Sequence record: OZ035813.1 | DNA from: Kayfunavirus LM33P1 | Length of the DNA: 38,979 bases | Strand: one strand, 5' to 3' | Translations under genes and position numbers: made by a program | The notes under the pieces: model-generated | Database searches by the model: none | Told to the model about the DNA's origin: nothing | What the model saw: only the letters and a program-made list of their open reading frames with translations | In this document: in pieces, positions 30 through 38,673 of the stretch | How the letters are laid out: each line of letters opens with the position of its first letter | Numbering within the stretch: position 1 is the stretch's first letter

Positions 30-293
30 ATGACGCAGATGGACTTAGAGAAGTTCCTGTTAATGCTGGACACAGAACGTGCTAGACTAATGCTGCAAGA
101 CCTGCGGGATGACACTAAGCGTTCACCTCAGCTCTACAACGCCATTGAGAAACTGCTTGCTCGACACAACTTTGTGTTAAGCAAGGTGTCTGTGGACGAG
201 AAGACGCTGGCGGATATGGAGGCCTTGAACGAAGAGTACGATAAGGTGCTTTCAGCTACTGAGGATAATGACACCGGGTATGGTGTTCAATAA
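30..293 (+). CDS. small terminase subunit (T7 gp18-like)
   Basis: 87-aa ORF immediately upstream of spanin and large terminase genes; size and motifs (FLLMLDTE, RSPQLYNAIEKLL) resemble T7 gp18 as recalled; ATG at 30 overlaps the TGA that would end the holin ORF wrapping from the window end. Confidence 0.8.
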   Translation: MTQMDLEKFLLMLDTERARLMLQDLRDDTKRSPQLYNAIEKLLARHNFVLSKVSVDEKTLADMEALNEEYDKVLSATEDNDTGYGVQ

Positions 294-338
294 GTGTTAG
301 ACTCAAGGTCATCGTCAGGTGGCCTTTATGGTTAACAC
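294..338 (+). promoter_or_regulatory. RNase III-like processing hairpin (R18.5 position)
   Basis: conserved element GACTCAAGGTCAT..GTGGCCTTTATG flanked by complementary outer stem GTGTTA/TAACAC. Confidence 0.4.
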
Positions 339-389
339 TGACTAGTGGAGGCGACTCTACGTTAAATCTGATAAACCGGGAGGGCAACT

Positions 390-3981: not shown

Positions 3982-4095
3982 GTACCACATCGAAACAACG
4001 GTGATGACCAACACTGAATGGTCTACCTGAAGTCCTCTGACTGAAGGGAATGCTCTTTAACAATCTGGATAAACTCTTAATGTGCGCCGATAGCG

Positions 4096-4151
4096 ACTAA
4101 CTACAGGGCCTTTGAGTCTACATCTGAAGGCCCTGACTGATAGTCACTAAC
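4096..4151 (+). promoter_or_regulatory. early-region repeated hairpin element (copy 1)
   Basis: contains GGCCCTGACTGATAGTCACTAAC and a 7-bp stem CAGGGCC/GGCCCTG; lies just upstream of the first early ORF. Confidence 0.4.
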
Positions 4152-4158
4152 TTAAAGG

Positions 4159-4413
4159 ATGGACACTATGAAACACTTAAGCACAATCACTAATCGCAAT
4201 GAAGTATTCGTGAACACTAAAGGTTATGCGTGGATTCAGCTTAAAGAGATGACAGGAGCGCGTCACCGTGTGGTAGTGCGCAAGGTATCAAGCAAGCAGT
4301 TCAGCAACTACAGCGTCGATACTGTGCGTATAGACAACGAGACATACCTGATAGACTCGCAGATAACCGTGAGTCCTACAGTGGGCGTCTCAGCTCCTTA
4401 TTTCGCTAACTGA
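4159..4413 (+). CDS. hypothetical early protein, first gene after the host promoters
   Basis: 84-aa ORF about 90 nt downstream of the T7-like leader GCTCTTTAACAATCTGG; no recognisable motif; alternative ATG at 4168. Confidence 0.5.
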   Translation: MDTMKHLSTITNRNEVFVNTKGYAWIQLKEMTGARHRVVVRKVSSKQFSNYSVDTVRIDNETYLIDSQITVSPTVGVSAPYFAN

Positions 4414-4420
4414 GAGTGAT

Positions 4421-4468
4421 TAACTACAGGTCGTTAGACTGATAGCGGCCTGACTGATAGTCACTAAC
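4421..4468 (+). promoter_or_regulatory. early-region repeated hairpin element (copy 2)
   Basis: ACTACAGGTC..GGCCTGACTGATAGTCACTAAC upstream of ocr. Confidence 0.4.
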
Positions 4469-5000: not shown

Positions 5001-5149
5001 TGGTAACTTATGGCCTCTGCCAGCACCACGTCACTAACGCCCGGCTTATGGTCAAGACCGGGCAGTTAGACCACGATTGGGCTATGCGTCTCTTGAAAGT
5101 GGTCTACAGGAGACGCAAGCGTATACACGACAGTTTACACGCTAAGTGA
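5000..5149 (+). CDS. small basic hypothetical protein
   Basis: 49-aa ORF whose ATG overlaps the ocr stop (TGATG); ends just before a repeated hairpin element. Confidence 0.35.
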   Translation: MVTYGLCQHHVTNARLMVKTGQLDHDWAMRLLKVVYRRRKRIHDSLHAK

Positions 5150-5150
5150 C

Positions 5151-5196
5151 AGACTACAGGTCATCAATGCTGGTGGCCTGACTGATAGTCATTAAC
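5151..5196 (+). promoter_or_regulatory. early-region repeated hairpin element (copy 3)
   Basis: GACTACAGGTCA..GGCCTGACTGATAGTCATTAAC upstream of ORF 5213. Confidence 0.4.
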
Positions 5197-5212: not shown

Positions 5213-5440
5213 ATGAACACAATCACTGGTGCCATAACCAAAGGTTTTCGAGCAATTTTCGGTGAAACGCAAGAAGTATGCACCAATCATAAATTCGTAC
5301 TTTCTTGCGTAGCAGGTGACGAGTTTGACGGGTTCGATAAACTGGTGGTTTGCGACCATTGCGGACAAGAGGCTATCCAACACTCAAACGGTAAATTTGA
5401 ATTAATAGACGATAGCCTTACAGAAGGAGACGGCGAGTAA
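5213..5440 (+). CDS. hypothetical early protein with four-cysteine (zinc-ribbon-like) motif
   Basis: 75 aa; Cys pairs in VCTNHKFVLSC and CDHC; SD GAGAGGGAAG upstream. Confidence 0.5.
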   Translation: MNTITGAITKGFRAIFGETQEVCTNHKFVLSCVAGDEFDGFDKLVVCDHCGQEAIQHSNGKFELIDDSLTEGDGE

Positions 5441-5572
5441 CCTAAATAAACAGGAGAGAACCAAATCATAGCTTGACCATAACACTGACGTGATGGTACT
5501 GAGTGATAGACGAGAGGTCATCGACTGATAGGTGGCCTCAAAGATTACCACTTACATTGATAGGAGTTAACT

Positions 5573-5677
5573 ATGAGCACTGCAATCATCTGGACTATCT
5601 CAGGCTTCGTAGCGTGGGGAATGTTTACTCTAGTCTGCAAACTACCGGTCCTTACTCAACTGTTATGGGGCTTATGA
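5573..5677 (+). CDS. small hydrophobic early peptide
   Basis: 34-aa ORF with SD TAGGAG upstream; TGA overlaps next ATG (ATGA). Confidence 0.3.
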   Translation: MSTAIIWTISGFVAWGMFTLVCKLPVLTQLLWGL

Positions 5678-5877: not shown

Positions 5878-6203
5878 TGAACAAGTCATACGGGATTAAT
5901 CTGGTACACTCTATGGACGCAGACATGCAAATGTTAAGCCTACTGGCTACCGGGTATCGTCACGGAACGTCAAGTCACTCCGCACGTCAACAGCAGGAGC
6001 GGGACCGGGTACTGCAAGCAAGACTCCGGGCTGAGGGCCATAAGTCCGAACTAATGTGTCTGGTGTATGGTGGACGACCAATCACTGACGATGGTAAACT
6101 TTTAGTCTCAGGCTGGAAGGCGATAGACCAACGGTCAACCATCAAGCACACGACTCATGGTGACTTCAGTCATCTCCACGCTAACCCGCTGATATGCAAG
6201 TAA
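5877..6203 (+). CDS. hypothetical early protein
   Basis: 108-aa ORF at the position where T7 carries the gp0.7 kinase; no kinase motifs seen. Confidence 0.55.
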   Translation: MNKSYGINLVHSMDADMQMLSLLATGYRHGTSSHSARQQQERDRVLQARLRAEGHKSELMCLVYGGRPITDDGKLLVSGWKAIDQRSTIKHTTHGDFSHLHANPLICK

Positions 6204-6208
6204 TTCTG

Positions 6209-6231
6209 ACTTAACTATCACTATAGGACTC
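6209..6231 (+). promoter_or_regulatory. phage RNAP promoter immediately upstream of the RNAP gene
   Basis: ACTTAACTATCACTATAGGACTC; predicted +1 at 6226. Confidence 0.7.
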
Positions 6232-6300: not shown

Positions 6301-8982
6301 ATGAGCGTCATCTCTATTGACAAGCACGACTTCTCTGATGTGTCGAACGCCATTGAGCCGTTTAACCTACTGGCTGACCACTACGGGCAAGACATTGCAG
6401 TCAAACAGCTTCAGCTTGAGCACGAGGCATACACTGAAGGCGAGCGACGTTTCATCAAGAACCTTGAGAGACAGACTGAGCGAGGGGAACTGGCAGACAA
6501 TCAGGTCGCCAAGCCTTTGATGCAGACTCTGGTCCCTAAGATTGCGCAAGCCGTCAAGGAGTGGCATGAAGGTCCAGACGGGAAGCTGTCAACCTCTCGT
6601 CCGAGCGTAGCGTTCACCATGTTGAGCACTGAAGAGAAGGCCGTAAAGGTCCGCTCTTTGCGCATCTCCTGCGAGTCTGCTGCGGTTATCATATTGAAGG
6701 TCATACTCTCCAAGCTGGTCAAGCCTGAAGGGATACCGATTACACCGATGGCCTCAGCGATAGGTCGCACACTTGAGGACGAAATCCGCTTCGGTCGCAT
6801 CCGTGACAAGGAGAAAGAGCACTTCAAGAAGGCGATAGCTGATAACCTGAATAAGCGGGCCGGGGCGTCCTACAAGAAAGCCTACATGCAAGCGGTCGAG
6901 GCATCCATGCTGGAGCAAGGCCAACTGGAAGATGCGTGGGGGACTTGGAGTCCGACCGAGGCTGTCCACGTTGGAATCAAGATGCTGGAGATTGTCATCC
7001 AGTCCACACAACTGGTCGAGCTTAAGCGTTACGGTGCTGGCAATGCAGCGGCTGACGTTGAGATGGTCCACCTGTCAGACTTCTGGGTCAAGAAGATGGC
7101 ACAACGAGGATTCAGCCTTGCGGGTATAGCTCCAGTCTACCAGCCTTGCGTCGTTCCACCTAAGCCGTGGACTGGTGTCGTAGGCGGTGGGTACTGGGCC
7201 AAAGGACGCAGACCATTACCACTGATTCGCTTAGGGTCTAAGTCTGCGGTAGCACGCTACGAAGACGTGTATATGCCTGAAGTCTATGACGCTGTGAACA
7301 TCATTCAGAATACACCTTGGAAAGTGAACAAGAAGGTTCTGGAAGTGGTGAACATGGTCGAGAAGCTGAACAACACGCCTATTGATGACATCCCTCAGAT
7401 GGAACCGCTGAAGCCTGAGGACTATGCGGGTGAGACTGAAGAAGAACTCAAGGCATGGAAGAAGGCTGCTGCTGGTATCTATCGCCGCGAGAAGGCCAGA
7501 CAGTCACGAAGATTGTCACTGAGCTTTATCGTCAACCAAGCGAACAAGTTCTCTCAGTTCAAGGCCATCTGGTTCCCGTATAACATGGACTGGCGCGGTC
7601 GCGTCTACGCTGTGCCGATGTTCAACCCTCAGGGTAACGACATGCAAAAGGGTCTTCTGACTCTGGCAGTCGGTAAGCCTATTGGTGCTGATGGTTTCAA
7701 ATGGCTGAAGGTCCACGGTGCAAACTGCGCGGGTGTCGATAAAGTCACCTTCGAGGAGCGTATCAAGTGGGTGGAAGATAACCACGACAACATCATGGCT
7801 GCTGCCAAGGCACCGATGGATAGCATTGAGTGGTGGGGCAAGTTAGACTCTCCGTTCTGCTTCCTAGCGTTCTGCTTCGAGTATGCTGGCGTAATGCACC
7901 ACGGCTTGTCTTACTCCTGCTCGCTGCCGATAGCGTTCGATGGGTCCTGCTCTGGGATTCAGCACTTCAGCGCTATGCTTCGCGACCACATCGGTGGACA
8001 TGCAGTAAACCTGACGCCATCCGGTAAGGTCCAAGACATCTACCGCATCGTGTCTGACCGCATTGAGGAGGAGCTTAAAGTCCTACTGGTTAACGGTACG
8101 GACAACGAGATGGTAACTCACGAGGACAAGAAAACTGGTGAGATTACCGAGCGTCTCAAGCTGGGGACACGAGAGCTTGCCCGTCAGTGGCTGACCTACG
8201 GTATGTCACGAAAGGTCACTAAGCGTTCGGTCATGACTCTGGCCTACGGGTCGAAAGAGTACGGCTTCGCAGACCAAGTTTACGAGGACATCGTGATGCC
8301 AGCGATTGACTCAGGGTCTGGCGCTATGTTCACTGAACCAAGCCAAGCATCTCGCTTCATGGCTAAGATGATTTGGGAAGCTGTGAGTGTGACCGTAGTT
8401 GCTGCGGTTGACGCGATGAAATGGCTTCAGGGTGCTGCCAAGCTGCTTGCTGCTGAAGTGAAGGACAAGAAGACTGGAGAAATCCTGAAGCCTTGTCTTC
8501 CGGTACACTGGGTCACACCTGATGGTTTCCCTGTCTGGCAGGAATACCGCAAGAAGGACACCACTCGTCTGAACCTGATGTTCTTAGGGTCATTCAACCT
8601 TCAGCCTACCGTCAACAAAGGCACGAAGAAAGAGCTGGACAAGCACAAGCAGGAGTCAGGCATTAGCCCGAACTTCGTCCACTCACAAGATGGTAGCCAC
8701 CTCCGCAAGACTGTAGTCCACACGCACCGCAAATATGGCGTGATGTCATTCGCAGTGATTCACGATAGCTTCGGGACCATCCCGGCTGACGCTGAGTATC
8801 TGTTCCGTGGAGTCCGTGAGACGATGGTCGAGACCTACCGCGACAACGATGTGCTGCTTGACTTCTACGAGCAGTTTGAATACCAGCTTCACGAGAGCCA
8901 GAGAGACAAGTTGCCTGAGCTTCCGAAGAAAGGTAAACTGAATATCGAAGACATCTTGTCTTCAGACTTTGCATTCGCTTAA
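6301..8982 (+). CDS. T7-like single-subunit DNA-directed RNA polymerase (gp1)
   Basis: 893 aa; characteristic T7 RNAP sequence throughout (for example PMFNPQGNDMQKGLLTLA, HDSFGT, AFCFEYAGV, C-terminal FAFA). Confidence 0.97.
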   Translation: MSVISIDKHDFSDVSNAIEPFNLLADHYGQDIAVKQLQLEHEAYTEGERRFIKNLERQTERGELADNQVAKPLMQTLVPKIAQAVKEWHEGPDGKLSTSRPSVAFTMLSTEEKAVKVRSLRISCESAAVIILKVILSKLVKPEGIPITPMASAIGRTLEDEIRFGRIRDKEKEHFKKAIADNLNKRAGASYKKAYMQAVEASMLEQGQLEDAWGTWSPTEAVHVGIKMLEIVIQSTQLVELKRYGAGNAAADVEMVHLSDFWVKKMAQRGFSLAGIAPVYQPCVVPPKPWTGVVGGGYWAKGRRPLPLIRLGSKSAVARYEDVYMPEVYDAVNIIQNTPWKVNKKVLEVVNMVEKLNNTPIDDIPQMEPLKPEDYAGETEEELKAWKKAAAGIYRREKARQSRRLSLSFIVNQANKFSQFKAIWFPYNMDWRGRVYAVPMFNPQGNDMQKGLLTLAVGKPIGADGFKWLKVHGANCAGVDKVTFEERIKWVEDNHDNIMAAAKAPMDSIEWWGKLDSPFCFLAFCFEYAGVMHHGLSYSCSLPIAFDGSCSGIQHFSAMLRDHIGGHAVNLTPSGKVQDIYRIVSDRIEEELKVLLVNGTDNEMVTHEDKKTGEITERLKLGTRELARQWLTYGMSRKVTKRSVMTLAYGSKEYGFADQVYEDIVMPAIDSGSGAMFTEPSQASRFMAKMIWEAVSVTVVAAVDAMKWLQGAAKLLAAEVKDKKTGEILKPCLPVHWVTPDGFPVWQEYRKKDTTRLNLMFLGSFNLQPTVNKGTKKELDKHKQESGISPNFVHSQDGSHLRKTVVHTHRKYGVMSFAVIHDSFGTIPADAEYLFRGVRETMVETYRDNDVLLDFYEQFEYQLHESQRDKLPELPKKGKLNIEDILSSDFAFA

Positions 8983-9238: not shown

Positions 9239-9454
9239 ATGAAATTTGCACACAAGCATACTGGCGTTAATGGTGGGACTCAAATCGTGACCGTAACAGA
9301 ACACAACGGCAAGGGTCTGGTGAAGACCACGGTCATCCCTACCGAGATGTCCAAGCAGCTTAACATCCCGTTCAAGACTCTTGTATATCTGGTCGAGTCC
9401 AGCCACGAGAAGTACCTGAAGGACGCAGTGTCCAAGCTGGAGCAGGCCAAATGA
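9239..9454 (+). CDS. hypothetical protein
   Basis: 71-aa ORF with AAGGAGAG SD. Confidence 0.5.
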   Translation: MKFAHKHTGVNGGTQIVTVTEHNGKGLVKTTVIPTEMSKQLNIPFKTLVYLVESSHEKYLKDAVSKLEQAK

Positions 9455-9529
9455 CAGACATACAGTTACTGGCCTTGTGGCTGGGAGCACTCGCAGTATT
9501 CACTTTAATCCAACGCAGAAGAGGTTAAC

Positions 9530-9552
9530 CCTAAACTATCACTATAGGATTA
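9530..9552 (+). promoter_or_regulatory. phage RNAP promoter (phi1.1-like)
   Basis: CCTAAACTATCACTATAGGATTA; +1 at 9547. Confidence 0.75.
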
Positions 9553-9595
9553 GACTCAAGGTCATGACTCAAAGTCGTGGCCTTCATGATTAACC
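9548..9595 (+). promoter_or_regulatory. RNase III-like processing hairpin (R1.1 position)
   Basis: same conserved core GACTCAAGGTCAT..GTGGCCTTCATG just downstream of promoter +1. Confidence 0.4.
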
Positions 9596-9625
9596 CTAAA
9601 TAAACACTACTGGAGATTTAACCGT

Positions 9626-9805
9626 ATGTATCAGAACACTATCAACTTCGAGCGCATCCGTGAACGTCAGCAGACTGAAGGTTACATCCCTAAGGGCCGC
9701 AAGCTGAACAAGACTAAACGTGGAGGAGGTATCAAAGGTGCTTTCCGTAACGCTGAAGGTAAAGACTCTATGGTTAACCAAGAGAAATACTTCGTAGGAG
9801 CATAA
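9626..9805 (+). CDS. gp1.1-like small basic protein
   Basis: 59-aa ORF downstream of a phage promoter; KGRKLNKTKR motif matches recalled T7 gp1.1. Confidence 0.6.
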   Translation: MYQNTINFERIRERQQTEGYIPKGRKLNKTKRGGGIKGAFRNAEGKDSMVNQEKYFVGA

Positions 9806-10073: not shown

Positions 10074-11161
10074 TGACAACTATCAAAACTAACCCTCACC
10101 GCGCTGTAGATTACTCTGAGTCTGGAATTAAGAAGGCACTGGAAGCAGCCGGGTCTCTGGAAGCTGAAGTGAAGTACGATGGTGTGCGCCTGAACCTCCT
10201 GGTCCTGCGTGAAGGTGAGACCTACTGGCTTAGCCGCGAGTCGAAACCTCTACCAGCCTTGGAGTGGATGAACTCTGAGTTAGGTAATGCGTGGACCCAA
10301 GCTGACTGGCGATGGTTCCTGCGTCAATCCGGCTACGAAGGTGTGGGCATGATGATTGATGGCGAGGTCATGGTCAAAGGTGTAGACTTCAACACCTCCT
10401 CAGGTCTCATCCGAACGAAGTGGCTCAAGCCTAACAACGAGGAGTTCGCTGAATACTATTCGCCGGCGACTGGTGGAAAGAAGCTCCCGTTCTGGGGATC
10501 CCGGTCACGACTTCAGGTTGTGGTCTACGGTGTCATCGACATGACAACCATTGCTGACCCGAAAGCCGAAGGTCCTATCCATAGCGTCACACGCCTGAAG
10601 GCCGAAGCTATCGTCCCTCTCCTCCAGAAATACTTCCCGGAAATCGACTGGGTTCTGTCTGAGTCACACACGGTCTATGACCTTGAGTCTCTCAACTCCC
10701 TGTACGAAGAGAAGCGTCTGGAAGGACACGAGGGTCTGGTAGTCAAGGACCCACTTGGTAAATACAAGCGCGGCAAGAAGTCAGGCATGTGGAAAATGAA
10801 GCCGGAGGACACCATTGATGGGACCGTGTGTGGACTCGTGTGGGGGACTCCTGGTAAGGCTAACGAAGGTAAGATCATCGGCTTTGAGGTTCTACTGGAG
10901 GATGGCATGGTGGTCAACGCCTGCGGTCTGTCTGAAGAACAGAAGGACGGGTTTACGGCTAAGGTCAAGGAGGACACGCTTGCTGCGGTTGGCATCTTTG
11001 CGCCGTACGGCATTGGTGGTAACGAACCTTGCTTCGATAACCCATACGAAGGCTGGCAGTGTGAAGTCCTCTTCATGGAGAGGTTCCCTGATGGCTCCCT
11101 TCGTCACCCCAGCTTCAAGTGCTGGCGTGGAACCGAAGACAACCCAACGGTGAAGTCATGA
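10073..11161 (+). CDS. ATP-dependent DNA ligase (gp1.3)
   Basis: KYDGVR adenylation motif, EGHEGLVVKDP, SLRHPSF; start taken at ATG 10073 overlapping the gp1.2 stop (TAATG) to match the T7 N-terminus MxxIKTNP. Confidence 0.9.
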   Translation: MTTIKTNPHRAVDYSESGIKKALEAAGSLEAEVKYDGVRLNLLVLREGETYWLSRESKPLPALEWMNSELGNAWTQADWRWFLRQSGYEGVGMMIDGEVMVKGVDFNTSSGLIRTKWLKPNNEEFAEYYSPATGGKKLPFWGSRSRLQVVVYGVIDMTTIADPKAEGPIHSVTRLKAEAIVPLLQKYFPEIDWVLSESHTVYDLESLNSLYEEKRLEGHEGLVVKDPLGKYKRGKKSGMWKMKPEDTIDGTVCGLVWGTPGKANEGKIIGFEVLLEDGMVVNACGLSEEQKDGFTAKVKEDTLAAVGIFAPYGIGGNEPCFDNPYEGWQCEVLFMERFPDGSLRHPSFKCWRGTEDNPTVKS

Positions 11162-12332: not shown

Positions 12333-13025
12333 ATGGCTAAAGAGCAACTGAAGACTTTCACCACTCCGGTAGCTGGTATCGTTGAGCCTTACGCATGGCT
12401 GAACAAAGCAGACACCAAGTTTAATGAACGTGGTGAGCATAAGGTTAACCTGACGTTCGACCTGAGCGACCCGAAGGTCCGTAAGATGATTGATGTCTTA
12501 CAGAAGATTCACGACGATGCGTATGCGAAAGCACTCGCAGACCACGAGAAGAACCCACCTCAGGTTCAGCGTGGCAAGAAGCCTATTGAACCACGTGAAG
12601 GCGACATGCCGTGGATTGAGAATGGTGACGGTACTGTTACCCTTAAGTTTAAATGCTTTGCGTCTTACCTGAAAGACGGCAAGTCCGAGCCTATCTTATT
12701 ACGGTTCTACGACACCGATGCTAAACTCATCCGTGACGTCCCGAATATTAGCGCTGGCTCCAAACTGAAGGTCAAGTTTAAAGTCCTGCCGTTCAAGTGG
12801 AACGCTGCGACCGGTGCAAGCGTTAAGCTCCAGCTTGAGTCCTGCCTTCTTGTAGAACTGAAGGAGTGGAAAGGTGCTGGTGGTGATGGTGGCTGGGGTG
12901 ATGATGAAGACCTTGGTACTGGCTACAAAGCGCCAACCGATGGTGACTTCGGGTCTGATGCCTTCGGTGACGATGGTTCCGAAGGTGGTGACGACTCCAG
13001 CTCTGGTGGCGATTACGACTTCTAA
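12333..13025 (+). CDS. single-stranded DNA-binding protein (gp2.5)
   Basis: 230 aa; EPYAW, RGKKPIEPREGDMPW, SKLKVKFKVLPFKWNAATGASVKLQLES, acidic C-terminal tail ending in F as in T7 gp2.5. Confidence 0.9.
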   Translation: MAKEQLKTFTTPVAGIVEPYAWLNKADTKFNERGEHKVNLTFDLSDPKVRKMIDVLQKIHDDAYAKALADHEKNPPQVQRGKKPIEPREGDMPWIENGDGTVTLKFKCFASYLKDGKSEPILLRFYDTDAKLIRDVPNISAGSKLKVKFKVLPFKWNAATGASVKLQLESCLLVELKEWKGAGGDGGWGDDEDLGTGYKAPTDGDFGSDAFGDDGSEGGDDSSSGGDYDF

Positions 13026-14416: not shown

Positions 14417-14434
14417 ACTATCACCGTAGGGATG
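14412..14434 (+). promoter_or_regulatory. phage RNAP promoter (variant)
   Basis: GCTAAACTATCACCGTAGGGATG; +1 at 14429. Confidence 0.6.
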
Positions 14435-14479
14435 AGACCACGAGTCTTGTCCCTTTGTTCGCATTTGAGATTAAGAAAT

Positions 14480-14558
14480 GTCTCCATAGCTCAAACGGTA
14501 GAGCGGCGGGTCGTGATGGCCTATTGCGATTAGGGTTCGAATCCCCGTGGAGACGCCA
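14480..14558 (+). tRNA. tRNA-like element with encoded CCA; anticodon arm irregular, identity unresolved
   Basis: 7-bp acceptor stem GTCTCCA/TGGAGAC, D-arm TAGCTCAAACGGTAGAGC, T-arm GGGTTCGAATCCC with canonical TTCGAAT loop, discriminator G then CCA; the segment between D and T arms (about 26 nt) does not fold into a clean 5-bp anticodon stem by eye. Confidence 0.4.
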
Positions 14559-16315: not shown

Positions 16316-16480
16316 GTGTTAAAGAAACTTAAAGCTCGCTACCATCGGTTCATGTACAAATGGTGGAGCGACGAAGCAACCTGCCTGTCGAACATTCTGG
16401 GAGACCAGCGGTTCAACTCTGAGGCATGGAAGAAAGCTAACCGGAAGTTCATGTATCACTTCTTGCGTACAGACTTCTAG
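16316..16480 (+). CDS. hypothetical small protein
   Basis: 54-codon ORF with GTG start 6 nt after GGAGGA, between the primase-helicase and DNA polymerase genes. Confidence 0.3.
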   Translation: MLKKLKARYHRFMYKWWSDEATCLSNILGDQRFNSEAWKKANRKFMYHFLRTDF

Positions 16481-16526
16481 GTCTAGACTCAAGGTCATTC
16501 ACATAGAGTGGCCTTTATGATTAGAC
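16481..16526 (+). promoter_or_regulatory. RNase III-like processing hairpin upstream of the DNA polymerase gene
   Basis: same conserved core with outer stem GTCTA/TAGAC. Confidence 0.4.
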
Positions 16527-16543
16527 TAAACGGAGGATTAACC

Positions 16544-20414: not shown

Positions 20415-20488
20415 TTTACTGGGTCGGACTTCTGGCCCTTTACTGCATGTACAAGTGGTTCGGGTCGAACAACCGTCCTAAACACTGA
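20396..20488 (+). CDS. small hydrophobic peptide (gene 6.3 position)
   Basis: 30-aa ORF with AAGGAGGT SD overlapping the end of gp6. Confidence 0.3.
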   Translation: MDTIHVIYWVGLLALYCMYKWFGSNNRPKH

Positions 20489-20540
20489 GTCTAACCGATA
20501 GTCATATCCTATCAATCCAATAGTCATCCATAGGTGAAAC

Positions 20541-20563
20541 ACTAAACTATCACTATAGGGACT
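20541..20563 (+). promoter_or_regulatory. phage RNAP promoter (phi6.5-like)
   Basis: ACTAAACTATCACTATAGGGACT; +1 at 20558. Confidence 0.75.
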
Positions 20564-20624
20564 TTAGGACCTAAGATATGACTATAAGATAGACTTTAGT
20601 CTTAACTTAAAGAGGAGATTCAAG

Positions 20625-21815: not shown

Positions 21816-23384
21816 ATGGCTGAACGTGAAGGGTTCGCTGCTGAAGGCGCTAAGTCAGTTTATGATAGATTGAAGAACGGACGACAGCCTTACGAGACCC
21901 GCGCACAGAACTGTGCTGCTGTCACTATCCCGTCACTGTTTCCTAAGGAATCAGACAACTCGTCTACTGAATATACCACTCCGTGGCAAGCTGTAGGTGC
22001 TCGCTGCTTGAACAACTTGGCTGCAAAGCTGATGTTGGCGTTATTCCCTCAGTCACCGTGGATGCGACTGACAGTCTCCGAATATGAGGCCAAGACCTTG
22101 AGTCAGGACTCAGAGGCTGCTGCTCGTGTTGACGAAGGGCTTGCTATGGTCGAGCGTGTGTTGATGGCCTACATGGAGACTAACAGTTTCCGTGTGCCAT
22201 TGTTCGAAGCTCTGAAGCAGCTTATCGTCTCCGGTAACTGTCTGCTTTACATTCCAGAGCCTGAACAGGGTACTTACAGTCCGATGCGGATGTACCGCTT
22301 AGTGTCTTACGTTGTTCAACGTGATGCGTTCGGTAACATCTTGCAGATTGTGACTCTCGACAAGGTAGCTTTCAGTGCTCTACCGGAAGACGTGAAGTCT
22401 CAACTCAATGCAGACGACTATGAGCCTGACACCGAGCTTGAAGTGTATACGCACATCTACCGTCAAGACGACGAGTATCTACGCTACGAGGAAGTGGAAG
22501 GGATTGAGGTAGCAGGGACCGATGGTTCCTACCCGCTGACTGCATGTCCGTACATCCCGGTACGAATGGTTCGACTGGATGGTGAAGACTACGGTCGTTC
22601 TTACTGCGAGGAGTATCTGGGCGACCTTAACTCGCTGGAGACGATTACAGAAGCTATCACCAAAATGGCTAAGGTAGCCTCCAAGGTGGTGGGACTCGTT
22701 AACCCGAACGGTATCACGCAACCTCGACGTCTGAACAAGGCGGCTACAGGTGAGTTCGTGGCTGGTCGCGTTGAGGACATCAACTTCCTGCAACTGACGA
22801 AAGGTCAGGACTTTACGATTGCCAAGTCGGTGGCTGACGCTATAGAGCAACGTTTAGGCTGGGCCTTCCTTCTTAATAGTGCTGTTCAGCGTAATGCCGA
22901 GCGGGTCACTGCTGAAGAGATTCGTTATGTTGCTGGCGAACTGGAGGCGACCTTAGGTGGCGTGTACTCAGTACAATCACAAGAGCTTCAGTTGCCTATC
23001 GTCCGTGTGCTGATGAACCAGCTTCAGTCTGCTGGCATGATTCCTGACCTTCCGAAAGAAGCGGTAGAGCCTACGGTCTCCACTGGTCTTGAAGCGTTAG
23101 GCCGTGGTCAAGACTTAGAGAAGCTGACTCAGGCAGTCAACATGATGACCGGGCTACAGCCTCTGGCTCAGGACCCAGACATTAACTTGCCGACCCTGAA
23201 GCTGCGACTGCTGAATGCCTTAGGCATTGACACCGCTGGTCTACTCCTTACGCAGGACGAGAAGATTCAGCGCATGGCTGAACAGTCGTCTCAACAGGCA
23301 GTAGTCCAAGGTGCTGGTGCTGCTGGTGCCAACATGGGCGCTGCTGTAGGTCAGGGAGCTGGTGAGGACATGGCTCAAGCCTAA
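21816..23384 (+). CDS. portal (head-to-tail connector) protein (gp8)
   Basis: 522 aa; extensive match to T7 gp8 (ERLKNGRQPYETRAQNCA, YRLVSYVVQRDAFGN, RSYCEEYLGDL, RVTAEEIRYVAGELE). Confidence 0.95.
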   Translation: MAEREGFAAEGAKSVYDRLKNGRQPYETRAQNCAAVTIPSLFPKESDNSSTEYTTPWQAVGARCLNNLAAKLMLALFPQSPWMRLTVSEYEAKTLSQDSEAAARVDEGLAMVERVLMAYMETNSFRVPLFEALKQLIVSGNCLLYIPEPEQGTYSPMRMYRLVSYVVQRDAFGNILQIVTLDKVAFSALPEDVKSQLNADDYEPDTELEVYTHIYRQDDEYLRYEEVEGIEVAGTDGSYPLTACPYIPVRMVRLDGEDYGRSYCEEYLGDLNSLETITEAITKMAKVASKVVGLVNPNGITQPRRLNKAATGEFVAGRVEDINFLQLTKGQDFTIAKSVADAIEQRLGWAFLLNSAVQRNAERVTAEEIRYVAGELEATLGGVYSVQSQELQLPIVRVLMNQLQSAGMIPDLPKEAVEPTVSTGLEALGRGQDLEKLTQAVNMMTGLQPLAQDPDINLPTLKLRLLNALGIDTAGLLLTQDEKIQRMAEQSSQQAVVQGAGAAGANMGAAVGQGAGEDMAQA

Positions 23385-24387: not shown

Positions 24388-24490
24388 CCAAGAGACAGAC
24401 TCAAGGTTTCCCCTATTACTTAAGTCCATACGGATTGGGCGTACAGTAAGTAATAAACTTTATTTTTCAATTGAATAGGAGAATTATCAT

Positions 24491-29130: not shown

Positions 29131-29180
29131 AAGGGCCTATAGATTTACCTTAACTATCACTATAGGGACTATAGGCCCTT
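29131..29180 (+). repeat. 12-bp perfect inverted repeat bracketing the phi13-like promoter
   Basis: AAGGGCCTATAG at 29131-29142 and CTATAGGCCCTT at 29169-29180. Confidence 0.6.
29148..29170 (+). promoter_or_regulatory. phage RNAP promoter (phi13-like)
   Basis: CCTTAACTATCACTATAGGGACT; +1 at 29165; bracketed by a 12-bp inverted repeat. Confidence 0.75.
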
Positions 29181-36428: not shown

Positions 36429-36446
36429 ACTATCACTATAGGAAAC
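36424..36446 (+). promoter_or_regulatory. phage RNAP promoter (phi17-like)
   Basis: ACTAAACTATCACTATAGGAAAC; +1 at 36441. Confidence 0.75.
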
Positions 36447-36492
36447 TGGAGGCGCTACCATAGGTCTCCGTTTAAATCACAAAGGAGGCATA

Positions 36493-38673
36493 ATGTCCAC
36501 GATTACACAATTCCCTTCAGGAAACACTCAGTACAGGATAGAGTTCGACTACCTAGCCAGAACGTTTGTTGTTGTTACGCTGGTGAATAGCTCTAACCCT
36601 ACCCTGAACCGTGTACTGGAAGTTGGTCGAGATTACCGATTCCTTAATCCAACGATGATTGAGATGTTGGCTGACCAATCAGGTTTCGACATCGTTCGTA
36701 TTCACCGTCAGACTGGAACTGACTTAGTGGTAGACTTCAGGAATGGCTCAGTGTTGACAGCTAGTGACCTGACCAATTCAGAGCTTCAGGCTATCCATAT
36801 TGCAGAAGAAGGTCGAGACCAAACGGTTGACTTAGCGAAGGAATATGCCGATGCTGCTGGTAGCTCTGCTGGCAACGCTAAGGATAGCGAGGACGAATCA
36901 CGCCGAATCGCTGCGAGTATCAAGGCAGCTGGTAAAATTGGCTATATTACCCGTCGCTCCTTCGAGAAAGGCTTCAACGTTACAACATGGAACGAGGTCC
37001 TGCTATGGGAAGAGGATGGTGATTATTACCGCTGGGATGGTACGCTTCCAAAGAACGTTCCCGCTGGTTCAACTCCTGAATCATCTGGTGGTATTGGGCT
37101 GAGTGCGTGGGTTAGTGTTGGTGATGCGTCACTTAGAGCAAACCTGGCTGATAGTGATGGCGCTAAATACATAGGCAGTGGAGAAAGGACATTACTTGAG
37201 CACAACAATGATGTTTTGCACTCAAAAGACTTTCCAACACTGCAGGCAGCTATAGATGCATCTTTGCAAAAAAATGATCTACTGGTGTCTCCTGGCAATT
37301 ATACTGAAAAAGTTACTATTGGAAACGCGCAGTTAAAAGGTGTTGGCGGGGCCACGGTACTAAAAACTCCGGCAGACTTTACAAACACTGTTCAGGTTAA
37401 TTTAGCTACACCTCATTGGCAATTCCGCCATAGTGGTGGTTTTGCTATAGATGGTTCCGGGACAACCGGGGCCGTAGGTATTAGTTTTGACCCGTCAGAC
37501 CAATATTCCGGACGTCATAATTTTAGTGATGTATACATCCACAACATCAACAAGGCCATTCAGAAGCCTTCCGGGAACATCGGCAATACTTGGAGAAATA
37601 TTGGGATATCTACGTGTGATTGGGGGTATTACGCGATTAGTGGCTCAGAGATGCATTGCGGGGCCGATACCCTCTACAATATCCACTTCGATGGCATCTC
37701 CACCTATGCAGTCTATCTAGACGGCACTGTCGATAATGGCGGGGGGGGCGCATGGTGGCTTAAAGACTCCATTATTGAGGCTTCCGGAGGTGGCGGGATA
37801 TACTTAAAAAGTAAATCGGGCGACTGTCCTACATCTCCATGCGGGGTATCCAATATATGGATGGAAGCGATCGCAACATCACCGGCTGTTCAGGTAGACG
37901 GCGTGGCGCAAAAACCGCGAGTTCTCAAGTTGGTAGACACAGCGATATTCTTTGCTGAGTATTCTTATCTCAACAACATCGAGCTATCCAACTCCAACTT
38001 AGTAACTTATGGTTGCCGTTTTGACAACGCTGATGGCAATCAGGATATTGTCGTGGATGCACAAAGTACCATTGTAGCCCATGACGTGTATTTAAACGGC
38101 AGTTCTGGAAAGGACGTTATTGTGGAGTCCGTAGCATCGCAATCTGCAACGATAGCTGCCACAAACTTATCTCTGAGGGGCAACTTAACAAGAGGGAGAG
38201 TATTTAATACGCCGACAGGGAATAAATTAATGGCTATCACATTTGACTCAGGTAGCCATAATTTTTCTGGCAGCGGCACCGTTAACGGTTCGACTGTATC
38301 TGACGGACTTCACGCCGCTACATGTACCGAATTTTCATTCCCCGGAGCCGGTTTATATGAAATGGTAGCGACAAGAACAACCATTACATCCGGTAGATGG
38401 TACGTGTGGGGAGTTAACTCACGCCTACAATCTGGCTCGGCGGATATTAGTATAACGTCAGGTATTACCATGGGTAGTGTTTACACAAAGCCGGGGGAGT
38501 GGATTAGCACTTTCGGTGTAGGAAAGGCATCTACCACTGGCACTGTAGCGCTATACGTTTCCACAGGAGGAGGTTCGGGAGCTACGGTCAGATTCAGTGA
38601 CTTTTTCATCGCTGAGTTTACGACGCAAGCTCAGGCTTTAGCTTTCGCCAATTCAAGGATGTCGTTATCATAA
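36493..38673 (+). CDS. tail fiber / tailspike (gp17): T7-like N-terminal adaptor fused to beta-helix-like C-terminal domain
   Basis: 726 aa; N-terminus (EFDYLARTFVVVTL, DYRF, DFRNGSVLTASDL, IHIAEEGRDQTVD) matches the T7 gp17 N-terminal domain; remainder is rich in G/N/S/T repeats typical of parallel beta-helix tailspikes and has a different base composition. Confidence 0.9.
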   Translation: MSTITQFPSGNTQYRIEFDYLARTFVVVTLVNSSNPTLNRVLEVGRDYRFLNPTMIEMLADQSGFDIVRIHRQTGTDLVVDFRNGSVLTASDLTNSELQAIHIAEEGRDQTVDLAKEYADAAGSSAGNAKDSEDESRRIAASIKAAGKIGYITRRSFEKGFNVTTWNEVLLWEEDGDYYRWDGTLPKNVPAGSTPESSGGIGLSAWVSVGDASLRANLADSDGAKYIGSGERTLLEHNNDVLHSKDFPTLQAAIDASLQKNDLLVSPGNYTEKVTIGNAQLKGVGGATVLKTPADFTNTVQVNLATPHWQFRHSGGFAIDGSGTTGAVGISFDPSDQYSGRHNFSDVYIHNINKAIQKPSGNIGNTWRNIGISTCDWGYYAISGSEMHCGADTLYNIHFDGISTYAVYLDGTVDNGGGGAWWLKDSIIEASGGGGIYLKSKSGDCPTSPCGVSNIWMEAIATSPAVQVDGVAQKPRVLKLVDTAIFFAEYSYLNNIELSNSNLVTYGCRFDNADGNQDIVVDAQSTIVAHDVYLNGSSGKDVIVESVASQSATIAATNLSLRGNLTRGRVFNTPTGNKLMAITFDSGSHNFSGSGTVNGSTVSDGLHAATCTEFSFPGAGLYEMVATRTTITSGRWYVWGVNSRLQSGSADISITSGITMGSVYTKPGEWISTFGVGKASTTGTVALYVSTGGGSGATVRFSDFFIAEFTTQAQALAFANSRMSLS

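Follow-up and report, generated by a model that had tools for sequence, protein, structure and literature searches.

The R1.1 RNA of phage T7 is the standard substrate for RNase III from E. coli. T7 has ten RNase III sites, commonly paired with promoters, and is able to grow in RNase III-deficient hosts (PMC6938266), which indicates that sites of this kind have modest functional importance. Internal loops confine the enzyme to one phosphodiester, and the 3' hairpin that remains protects against 3'-5' exonucleases (PMC1540722, PMC3867540). Cleavage of the minimal R1.1 substrate does not depend on loop sequence, and in R1.1-derived substrates neither the sequence nor the position of the loop sets the site; removal of one bp from a minimal substrate lowers reactivity 50-fold (PMC1540722).

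The window analyzed here is the whole 38,979-bp genome of Escherichia phage LM33_P1 (Kayfunavirus, Studiervirinae), rotated such that window position equals record position + 3376; a 3-kb probe from it gave a 100% match to this phage. Its sole difference from RefSeq NC_031937 is a 19-bp stretch (8267-8285) within the RNA polymerase gene; a 20-mer is duplicated there in the RefSeq record, splitting the gene into two CDS, and in the window the gene is a single intact 893-aa ORF (6301-8982).

An earlier note had proposed three intergenic sites of RNase III type sharing the core GACTCAAGGTCAT...GTGGCCTT(T/C)ATG. All three were found on the plus strand, with ends offset by 1-2 nt (293-339, 9546-9597 and 16480-16527, hereafter sites 1, 2 and 3), and the core is common to them (3 matches, 0 expected). 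Of the composite pattern GACTCAAGGTCAT-N(4-20)-GTGGCCTTYATG the window has exactly three copies, on the plus strand only, and 100 shuffles gave 0. Each site (3/3) folds into a hairpin of about two helical turns in which a lower stem of 6-7 bp and an upper stem of 9-12 bp are split by an asymmetric internal loop of 5 + 6 nt, whose 5' strand reads GACUC and whose 3' strand reads (U/C)AUG(A/G)U. The upper stems start AAGGUCAU/GUGGCCUU. The inner stem AAGGUC/GGCCUU, said to hold a G-U pair, indeed consists of A-U, A-U, G-C, G-C, U-G and C-G, and it extends to 9, 12 and 10 bp in sites 1, 2 and 3, adding a second U-G. The outer stems had been described as differing in sequence yet remaining complementary, which is true of sites 1 (AGUGUUA/UAACACU, 7/7 paired) and 3 (GGUCUA/UAGACU, 6/7) but not entirely of site 2 (AGGAUUA/UAACCCU, 6/7), where an A.C mismatch had gone unmentioned. 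RNAalifold on the three copies, the check proposed at the time, returned the same structure, in which three pairs of the lower stem carry compensating changes on both sides. Folded singly, sites 1-3 have energies between -20.2 and -21.2 kcal/mol, with z between -3.5 and -4.8, and 0 of 200 shuffles folded as well. Since the reverse complements fold poorly (z -1.0 for site 1 and -0.5 for site 3) or less well (z -2.4 for site 2), the structure is one of plus-sense RNA and not a DNA palindrome.

A covariance model of the hairpin was calibrated on known sites. The T7 RefSeq and V01146 feature tables are without RNase III sites, and T3 (AJ318471) was used as the benchmark instead; its ten stem-loops annotated 'RNase III recognition site' form an independent set. 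At E<1e-4, seven of the ten T3 stem-loops (R0.3, R0.5, R1.1, R1.3, R4.7, R6.5 and R18.5) were recovered to within a few bases and no false positive arose; matches to R1 and R3.8 are weak and R13 gives none. The annotated T3 sites score 29.8-66.2 bits. For T7, 8/10 sites were recovered at E<0.01, the next match having E>1. Sites 1-3 score 62.6-64.3 bits (E about 1e-14), level with the best T7 and T3 sites. Together with homology to experimentally defined T7 sites, these T3-validated scores support the RNase III-type reading advanced earlier; cleavage itself we infer by homology.

Site 1 (293..339, plus strand; 63.6 bits, E 3e-14; fold z -3.87), an R18.5-type hairpin, begins at the final base of the stop codon (TAA, 291-293) of gene 18, the small terminase gene, with the Rz-like gene 18.5 downstream. 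Its lower stem (293-299/333-339) and its 9-bp upper stem (305-313/318-326, loop GUCA) flank an internal loop of GACUC (300-304) and UAUGGU (327-332), and the predicted cut, 329^330 (a caret marks the bond), is 60 nt 5' of the gene 18.5 ATG (390). Site 3 (16480..16527, plus strand; 64.3 bits; fold z -3.47), of the R4.7 type, has the primase-helicase region upstream and the DNA polymerase gene downstream. It comprises a lower stem at 16480-16485/16522-16527, an internal loop at 16486-16490 and 16516-16521, and a 10-bp upper stem (16491-16500/16506-16515, loop ACAUA) identical to that of T7 R1.1; the cut is predicted at 16518^16519, 25 nt 5' of the DNA polymerase ATG (16544).

Site 2 (9546..9597, plus strand; 62.6 bits; fold z -4.80) is an R1.1-type hairpin situated between the RNA polymerase gene, with two small ORFs, and the ORF preceding gene 1.2. 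The lower stem (9546-9552/9591-9597), which holds the A.C mismatch, and the 12-bp upper stem (9558-9569/9573-9584, loop CAA) are separated by an internal loop at 9553-9557 and 9585-9590, and the predicted cut, 9587^9588, is 38 nt 5' of the next ATG (9626). Fused to the hairpin is a phage RNA polymerase promoter core (9535..9548, plus strand), the 14-mer ACTATCACTATAGG, of which the window has eight exact copies, all on the plus strand. The +1 of this promoter is presumably G9547, and therefore promoter-initiated transcripts would start within the 5' arm of the lower stem. The same promoter-hairpin arrangement is seen in T7 phi1.1A/R1.1 and T3 phi1.1/R1.1; in T3 the promoter (5984-6006) overlaps stem-loop R1.1 (6003-6053). 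The 3' arm and tail of site 2 (9590-9615, TTAACCCTAAATAAACACTACTGGA) resemble a decayed copy of the upstream promoter (9520-9547, TTAACCCTAAACTATCACTATAGGA), which would correspond in position to the second promoter of T7, phi1.1B. The conserved A.C mismatch of promoter-fused lower stems may thus be explained by a 3' arm that is a decayed promoter copy. In addition, the distal upper stem of site 2 (9566-9578, plus strand; GACUCAAAGUC) is a near-copy of the 5' half of the core (GACUCAAGGUC) and looks like a nested partial duplication, present in K1F and absent from the orthologous site in contig L017.

GC-containing hairpins between genes could also act as intrinsic terminators or attenuators of transcription. 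None of the three is followed by a U-run, however (tails UGACUAGUGG, CUAAAUAAAC and AAACGGAGGA), and a scan of 9300-9800 around site 2 gave 0 terminator-like sites; on these grounds we treat termination as excluded, its chance of being correct being next to nil.

The positions originally assigned to the hairpins, R18.5, R1.1 and R4.7, agree with the flanking large genes in T3 and T7: 18/18.5, 1/1.2 with the promoter, and 4/5, respectively. This synteny rests on the large neighbors because no similarity to T3 genes 1.1 and 4.5 could be detected in the small ORFs beside sites 2 and 3. As in the window, R4.7 of T3 is directly 5' of gene 5, and its R18.5 overlaps gene 18 at the end of that gene. 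The T7 signals are likewise intergenic and on the sense strand, with the same neighboring large genes and a promoter fused to R1.1, and T7 R1.1, R0.5, R4.7 and R18.5 have the same core, ACUCAAGGUC...GUGGCCUU(U/C)AUGAU, and the same three-part architecture as the window sites. In R0.5, R1.1 and R4.7 this core ends CCUUUAU^GAU, and around the cleavage point (ACUCAAGGUC...GGCCUUUAU^GAU) sites 1-3 are identical to T7 R0.5 and R1.1. The T7 cleavage coordinates, which we take to be those of Dunn & Studier 1983, were checked against their context: the canonical ones share the same U of CCUUUAU^GAU and, because each falls at this junction, they fit the classical ends of the T7 early mRNAs, 3'-UUUAU-OH and 5'-pGAU.

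What differs from T7 is the lower stems and terminal loops, and the changes are compensated. Site 3 and T7 R1.1 are exactly alike in upper stem and internal loop, only the terminal loop and lower stem being different, and the upper stems of sites 1 and 2 have 9 and 12 bp, respectively, versus 10 in T7 R1.1. T3, which belongs to another genus (Teetrevirus), also has different lower stems (AGTGATA/TATCATT and others). In K1F (NC_007456), the type species of the same genus as LM33_P1, the orthologous sites (36443-36502, 5563-5622 and 12850-12907) have identical stems, apart from an R18.5 upper stem of 11 bp versus 9 in site 1; site 2 is identical in K1F, and the lower stem of site 1 is the same in K1F and compensated in T3 and T7. 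The R4.7 lower stems illustrate such compensation: AGGTCTA/TAGACTA in LM33_P1 and K1F, AGTGATA/TATCATT in T3 and AGTGGTA/TACTATT in T7. In this orthologous comparison, compensated lower stems were found at each of the three positions.

The claim that covariation supports a conserved RNA structure proved strong when extended across T7-like phages. Using the covariance model (R1), we gathered 99 matches, 88 of them distinct, at 41 loci; in the 88 distinct T7-like copies compensatory changes are seen at 15 of 17 pairs, and pairing holds in 95.0% of cells, versus 27-47% in slid controls. This alignment was fitted to the model and hence leans towards it, but the same answer came from a core-only scan of viral contigs (CTCAAGGTC-N(6-24)-TGGCCTT, then a filter on the 3' loop bases), in which the lower stem is free to vary. 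Of 55 candidates, two core-pattern matches from non-T7-like contigs (L119 and L016) were removed before alignment, leaving 53 distinct T7-like copies. In these, six of seven lower-stem pairs are changed on both sides with 92.7% of cells paired, the structure as a whole is 95.9% paired compared with 25-51% for slid 3' partners, and the core columns are invariant or nearly so.

The unusually good conservation of the core for a purely structural element, along with the promoter fused to site 2, would be in keeping with DNA-level repeats (protein-binding palindromes, recombination sites or promoter-linked elements) instead of RNA structures. In DNA, however, each conserved U-G wobble would amount to a mismatch, and to A.C on the opposite strand, and the compensatory changes in both the 53- and 88-copy sets keep RNA pairing, G-U included. 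Moreover, folding of the minus strand is poor and its score with the covariance model is about 9 bits, and a phage promoter adjoins only 1/7 members of the family. Conservation of the wobbles and the strand asymmetry thus make repeats acting at the DNA level very improbable.

The family is larger than the three members first proposed: the covariance model identified seven in LM33_P1, the additional four lying in the early region. All seven (7/7) are intergenic and in sense orientation. The early sites are plus-strand hairpins with an internal loop, located between early genes (z -2.5 to -4.5), and their variant type of core, ACUACAGG...CCUGACUGAU or GACGAGAGG...CCUCAAAGAU, resembles T7 R1. The weakest (4092..4148, model match 4087-4151; 12.4 bits, E 1.4; fold z -3.72) has the core ACUACAGG...CCUGACUGAU and an 11-bp upper stem, and is intergenic, just 5' of an ORF starting at 4159. 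It has its internal loop and 3' arm (ACUGAU AGUCACU AAC) in common with the site at 4415..4465 (model match 4410-4468; 31.3 bits, E 1e-5; fold z -4.51), which is upstream of the ocr (gene 0.3) homologue, the R0.3 position, and has a K1F orthologue at 1027-1085. Between ocr and the next small ORF is a third (5145..5193, model match 5140-5196; 36.2 bits, E 6e-7; fold z -2.54) with a T7 R1-like core, GACUACAGGUCAU...GUGGCCUGACUGAU. The fourth (5502..5552, model match 5497-5555; 36.8 bits, E 4e-7; fold z -2.76), with the core GACGAGAGGUCAUC...GGUGGCCUCAAAGAU, lies between an ORF that ends at 5440 and one that starts at 5674, is intergenic, and has its K1F orthologue at 1763-1821; K1F thus carries two of the four early variants. 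Canonical copies of R1, R1.3 and R6.5 were sought in the window with the covariance model and none was found, the four early variants being found instead.

Several other occurrences of the core were considered and rejected as members. The recurrence reported at about 24395, after the phi10-like promoter, proved to be only a 10-nt half-core, GACTCAAGGT (24398-24407), equivalent to the core's 5' half. The 3' half is missing and there is no model match; in the leader hairpin of gene 10 this half-core forms the 3' arm, pairing with GGGAGACC at the start of the phi10 transcript. At 6214-6227 (plus strand), directly upstream of the RNA polymerase gene (ATG 6301), is an exact phage promoter core followed by the half-core GACTCAAGGTC. 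At this R1 position GACTCAAGGTC was rejected, with folds of z -0.4 and -1.7 and no model match. An exact reverse-strand 13-mer of the core in the ligase gene (10677-10689, minus strand) was also rejected as a long-range pairing partner; it was found only in close relatives and, since it encodes YDLES and is absent from K1F, it is probably a chance match. A one-mismatch reverse-complement copy of the 13-nt core in gene 8 (22092-22104, minus strand) is likewise treated as chance.

Analogues of T7/T3 R3.8, R6.5 and R13 are present in the window at 14429-14456, about 20484-20600 and 29131-29180, respectively. These three promoter-associated structures are without the ACUCAAGG/GGCCUU core and unrecognized by the model, and are, by analogy of position and architecture only, candidate RNase III sites. 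At 14417-14470 (plus strand) a promoter-like ACTATCACCGTAGG precedes the leader hairpin GGGAUGAGAC-CACG-AGUCUUGUCCC, after which comes CCCUUUGUUCGCAUU. The region is homologous to phi3.8/R3.8 of T7 and T3, with CCCUUUGUUCGCAUU conserved and the K1F stem change compensated, and the T3 record annotates its equivalent as RNase III site R3.8. The long hairpin at 20484-20600 (plus strand; z -3.75), which includes a perfect 11-bp stem (AUAGUCAUAUC/GAUAUGACUAU), encloses a phage promoter at 20546, upstream of gene 6.5, and its architecture is that of T7/T3 R6.5. Upstream of gene 13, a perfect 12-bp stem (AAGGGCCUAUAG/CUAUAGGCCCUU; 29131-29180, plus strand; z -3.1) surrounds a phage promoter at 29153, analogous to T7/T3 R13; both of its arms would be present only in read-through transcripts.

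Between the R3.8-type hairpin and the primase gene is a tRNA-like gene (14480-14558, plus strand), called tRNA-Thr(CGT) by ARAGORN and scoring 36.7 bits with the Rfam tRNA model versus a gathering threshold of 29. Its acceptor, D and T arms match, its anticodon region is atypical (21 nt vs 17) and CCA is encoded. A 166-nt query containing this gene is matched over most of its length in only about 34 phage records, and most Kayfunavirus genomes share only the 66 nt preceding the gene. In a search of the window with 4227 Rfam models at gathering threshold, this tRNA (14480-14555) was the sole hit and there was no match at the hairpins.

Taken together, we consider it about 90% probable, by homology, that the hairpins are host (E. 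coli) RNase III processing signals in polycistronic plus-strand transcripts. We infer the exact cut positions by homology with T7, as well as the effects on mRNA stability and translation. In the quasi-continuous helix of about two turns, with a 6-7 bp lower stem, a conserved internal loop (5' GACUC, 3' UAUGAU) and a 9-12 bp upper stem, the internal loop would, as in the homologous T7 sites, hold RNase III to a single cut, placed 3' in the loop at CCUU(U/C)AU^G. With the upper-stem hairpin at its end, the upstream message would be shielded from 3'-5' exonucleases, and the downstream message would begin with a 5'-monophosphate, leaving 5' UTRs of 60, 38 and 25 nt after sites 1, 2 and 3, respectively.

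Weak points for cleavage are the upper stem of only 9 bp in site 1, though with the full lower stem kept, and the difference of site 2 from R1.1 at two bp equivalent to the distal box, plus its A.C mismatch. Such a short upper stem and altered distal pairs could mean that the hairpins are not cleaved and serve as stabilizing or translation-modulating structures, or as sites bound by RNase III and left uncut; each of the three is 25-60 nt 5' of a start codon, and R1.1 variants that are competent for binding and resistant to cleavage exist (PMC1540722). Nevertheless, cleavage in T7 R1.1 is set by the internal loop and the proximal stem, and in both of these the hairpins are identical to T7 sites that are cleaved, which disfavors the bound-but-uncut reading; their scores, too, are on a par with the best of T7 and T3. 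We therefore regard uncleaved hairpins as unlikely and retain processing by RNase III as the preferred explanation. The unpaired internal-loop bases and the proximal stem are near-invariant across paralogous sites and genera, which goes beyond the presumed requirements of E. coli RNase III. A second constraint, such as a phage factor that recognizes the sites or gene conversion still under way among them, might lie behind the near-invariance and the lineage-specific set of four early variants, a suggestion that we rate as improbable.

The hairpins of LM33_P1 are orthologues and paralogues of the textbook RNase III processing signals of T7 and T3, and as such represent known biology and nothing new. 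They are absent from the annotation of the LM33_P1 and K1F RefSeq records, and the main worth of the family is in annotation, no new question being opened. To the known picture are added four early-region members, predicted cleavage bonds and three promoter-associated candidate sites. The covariance model can be transferred to other T7-like genomes, and for LM33_P1, a phage-therapy candidate, the map of seven canonical-type sites and three promoter-associated candidates predicts the boundaries of its mRNAs.
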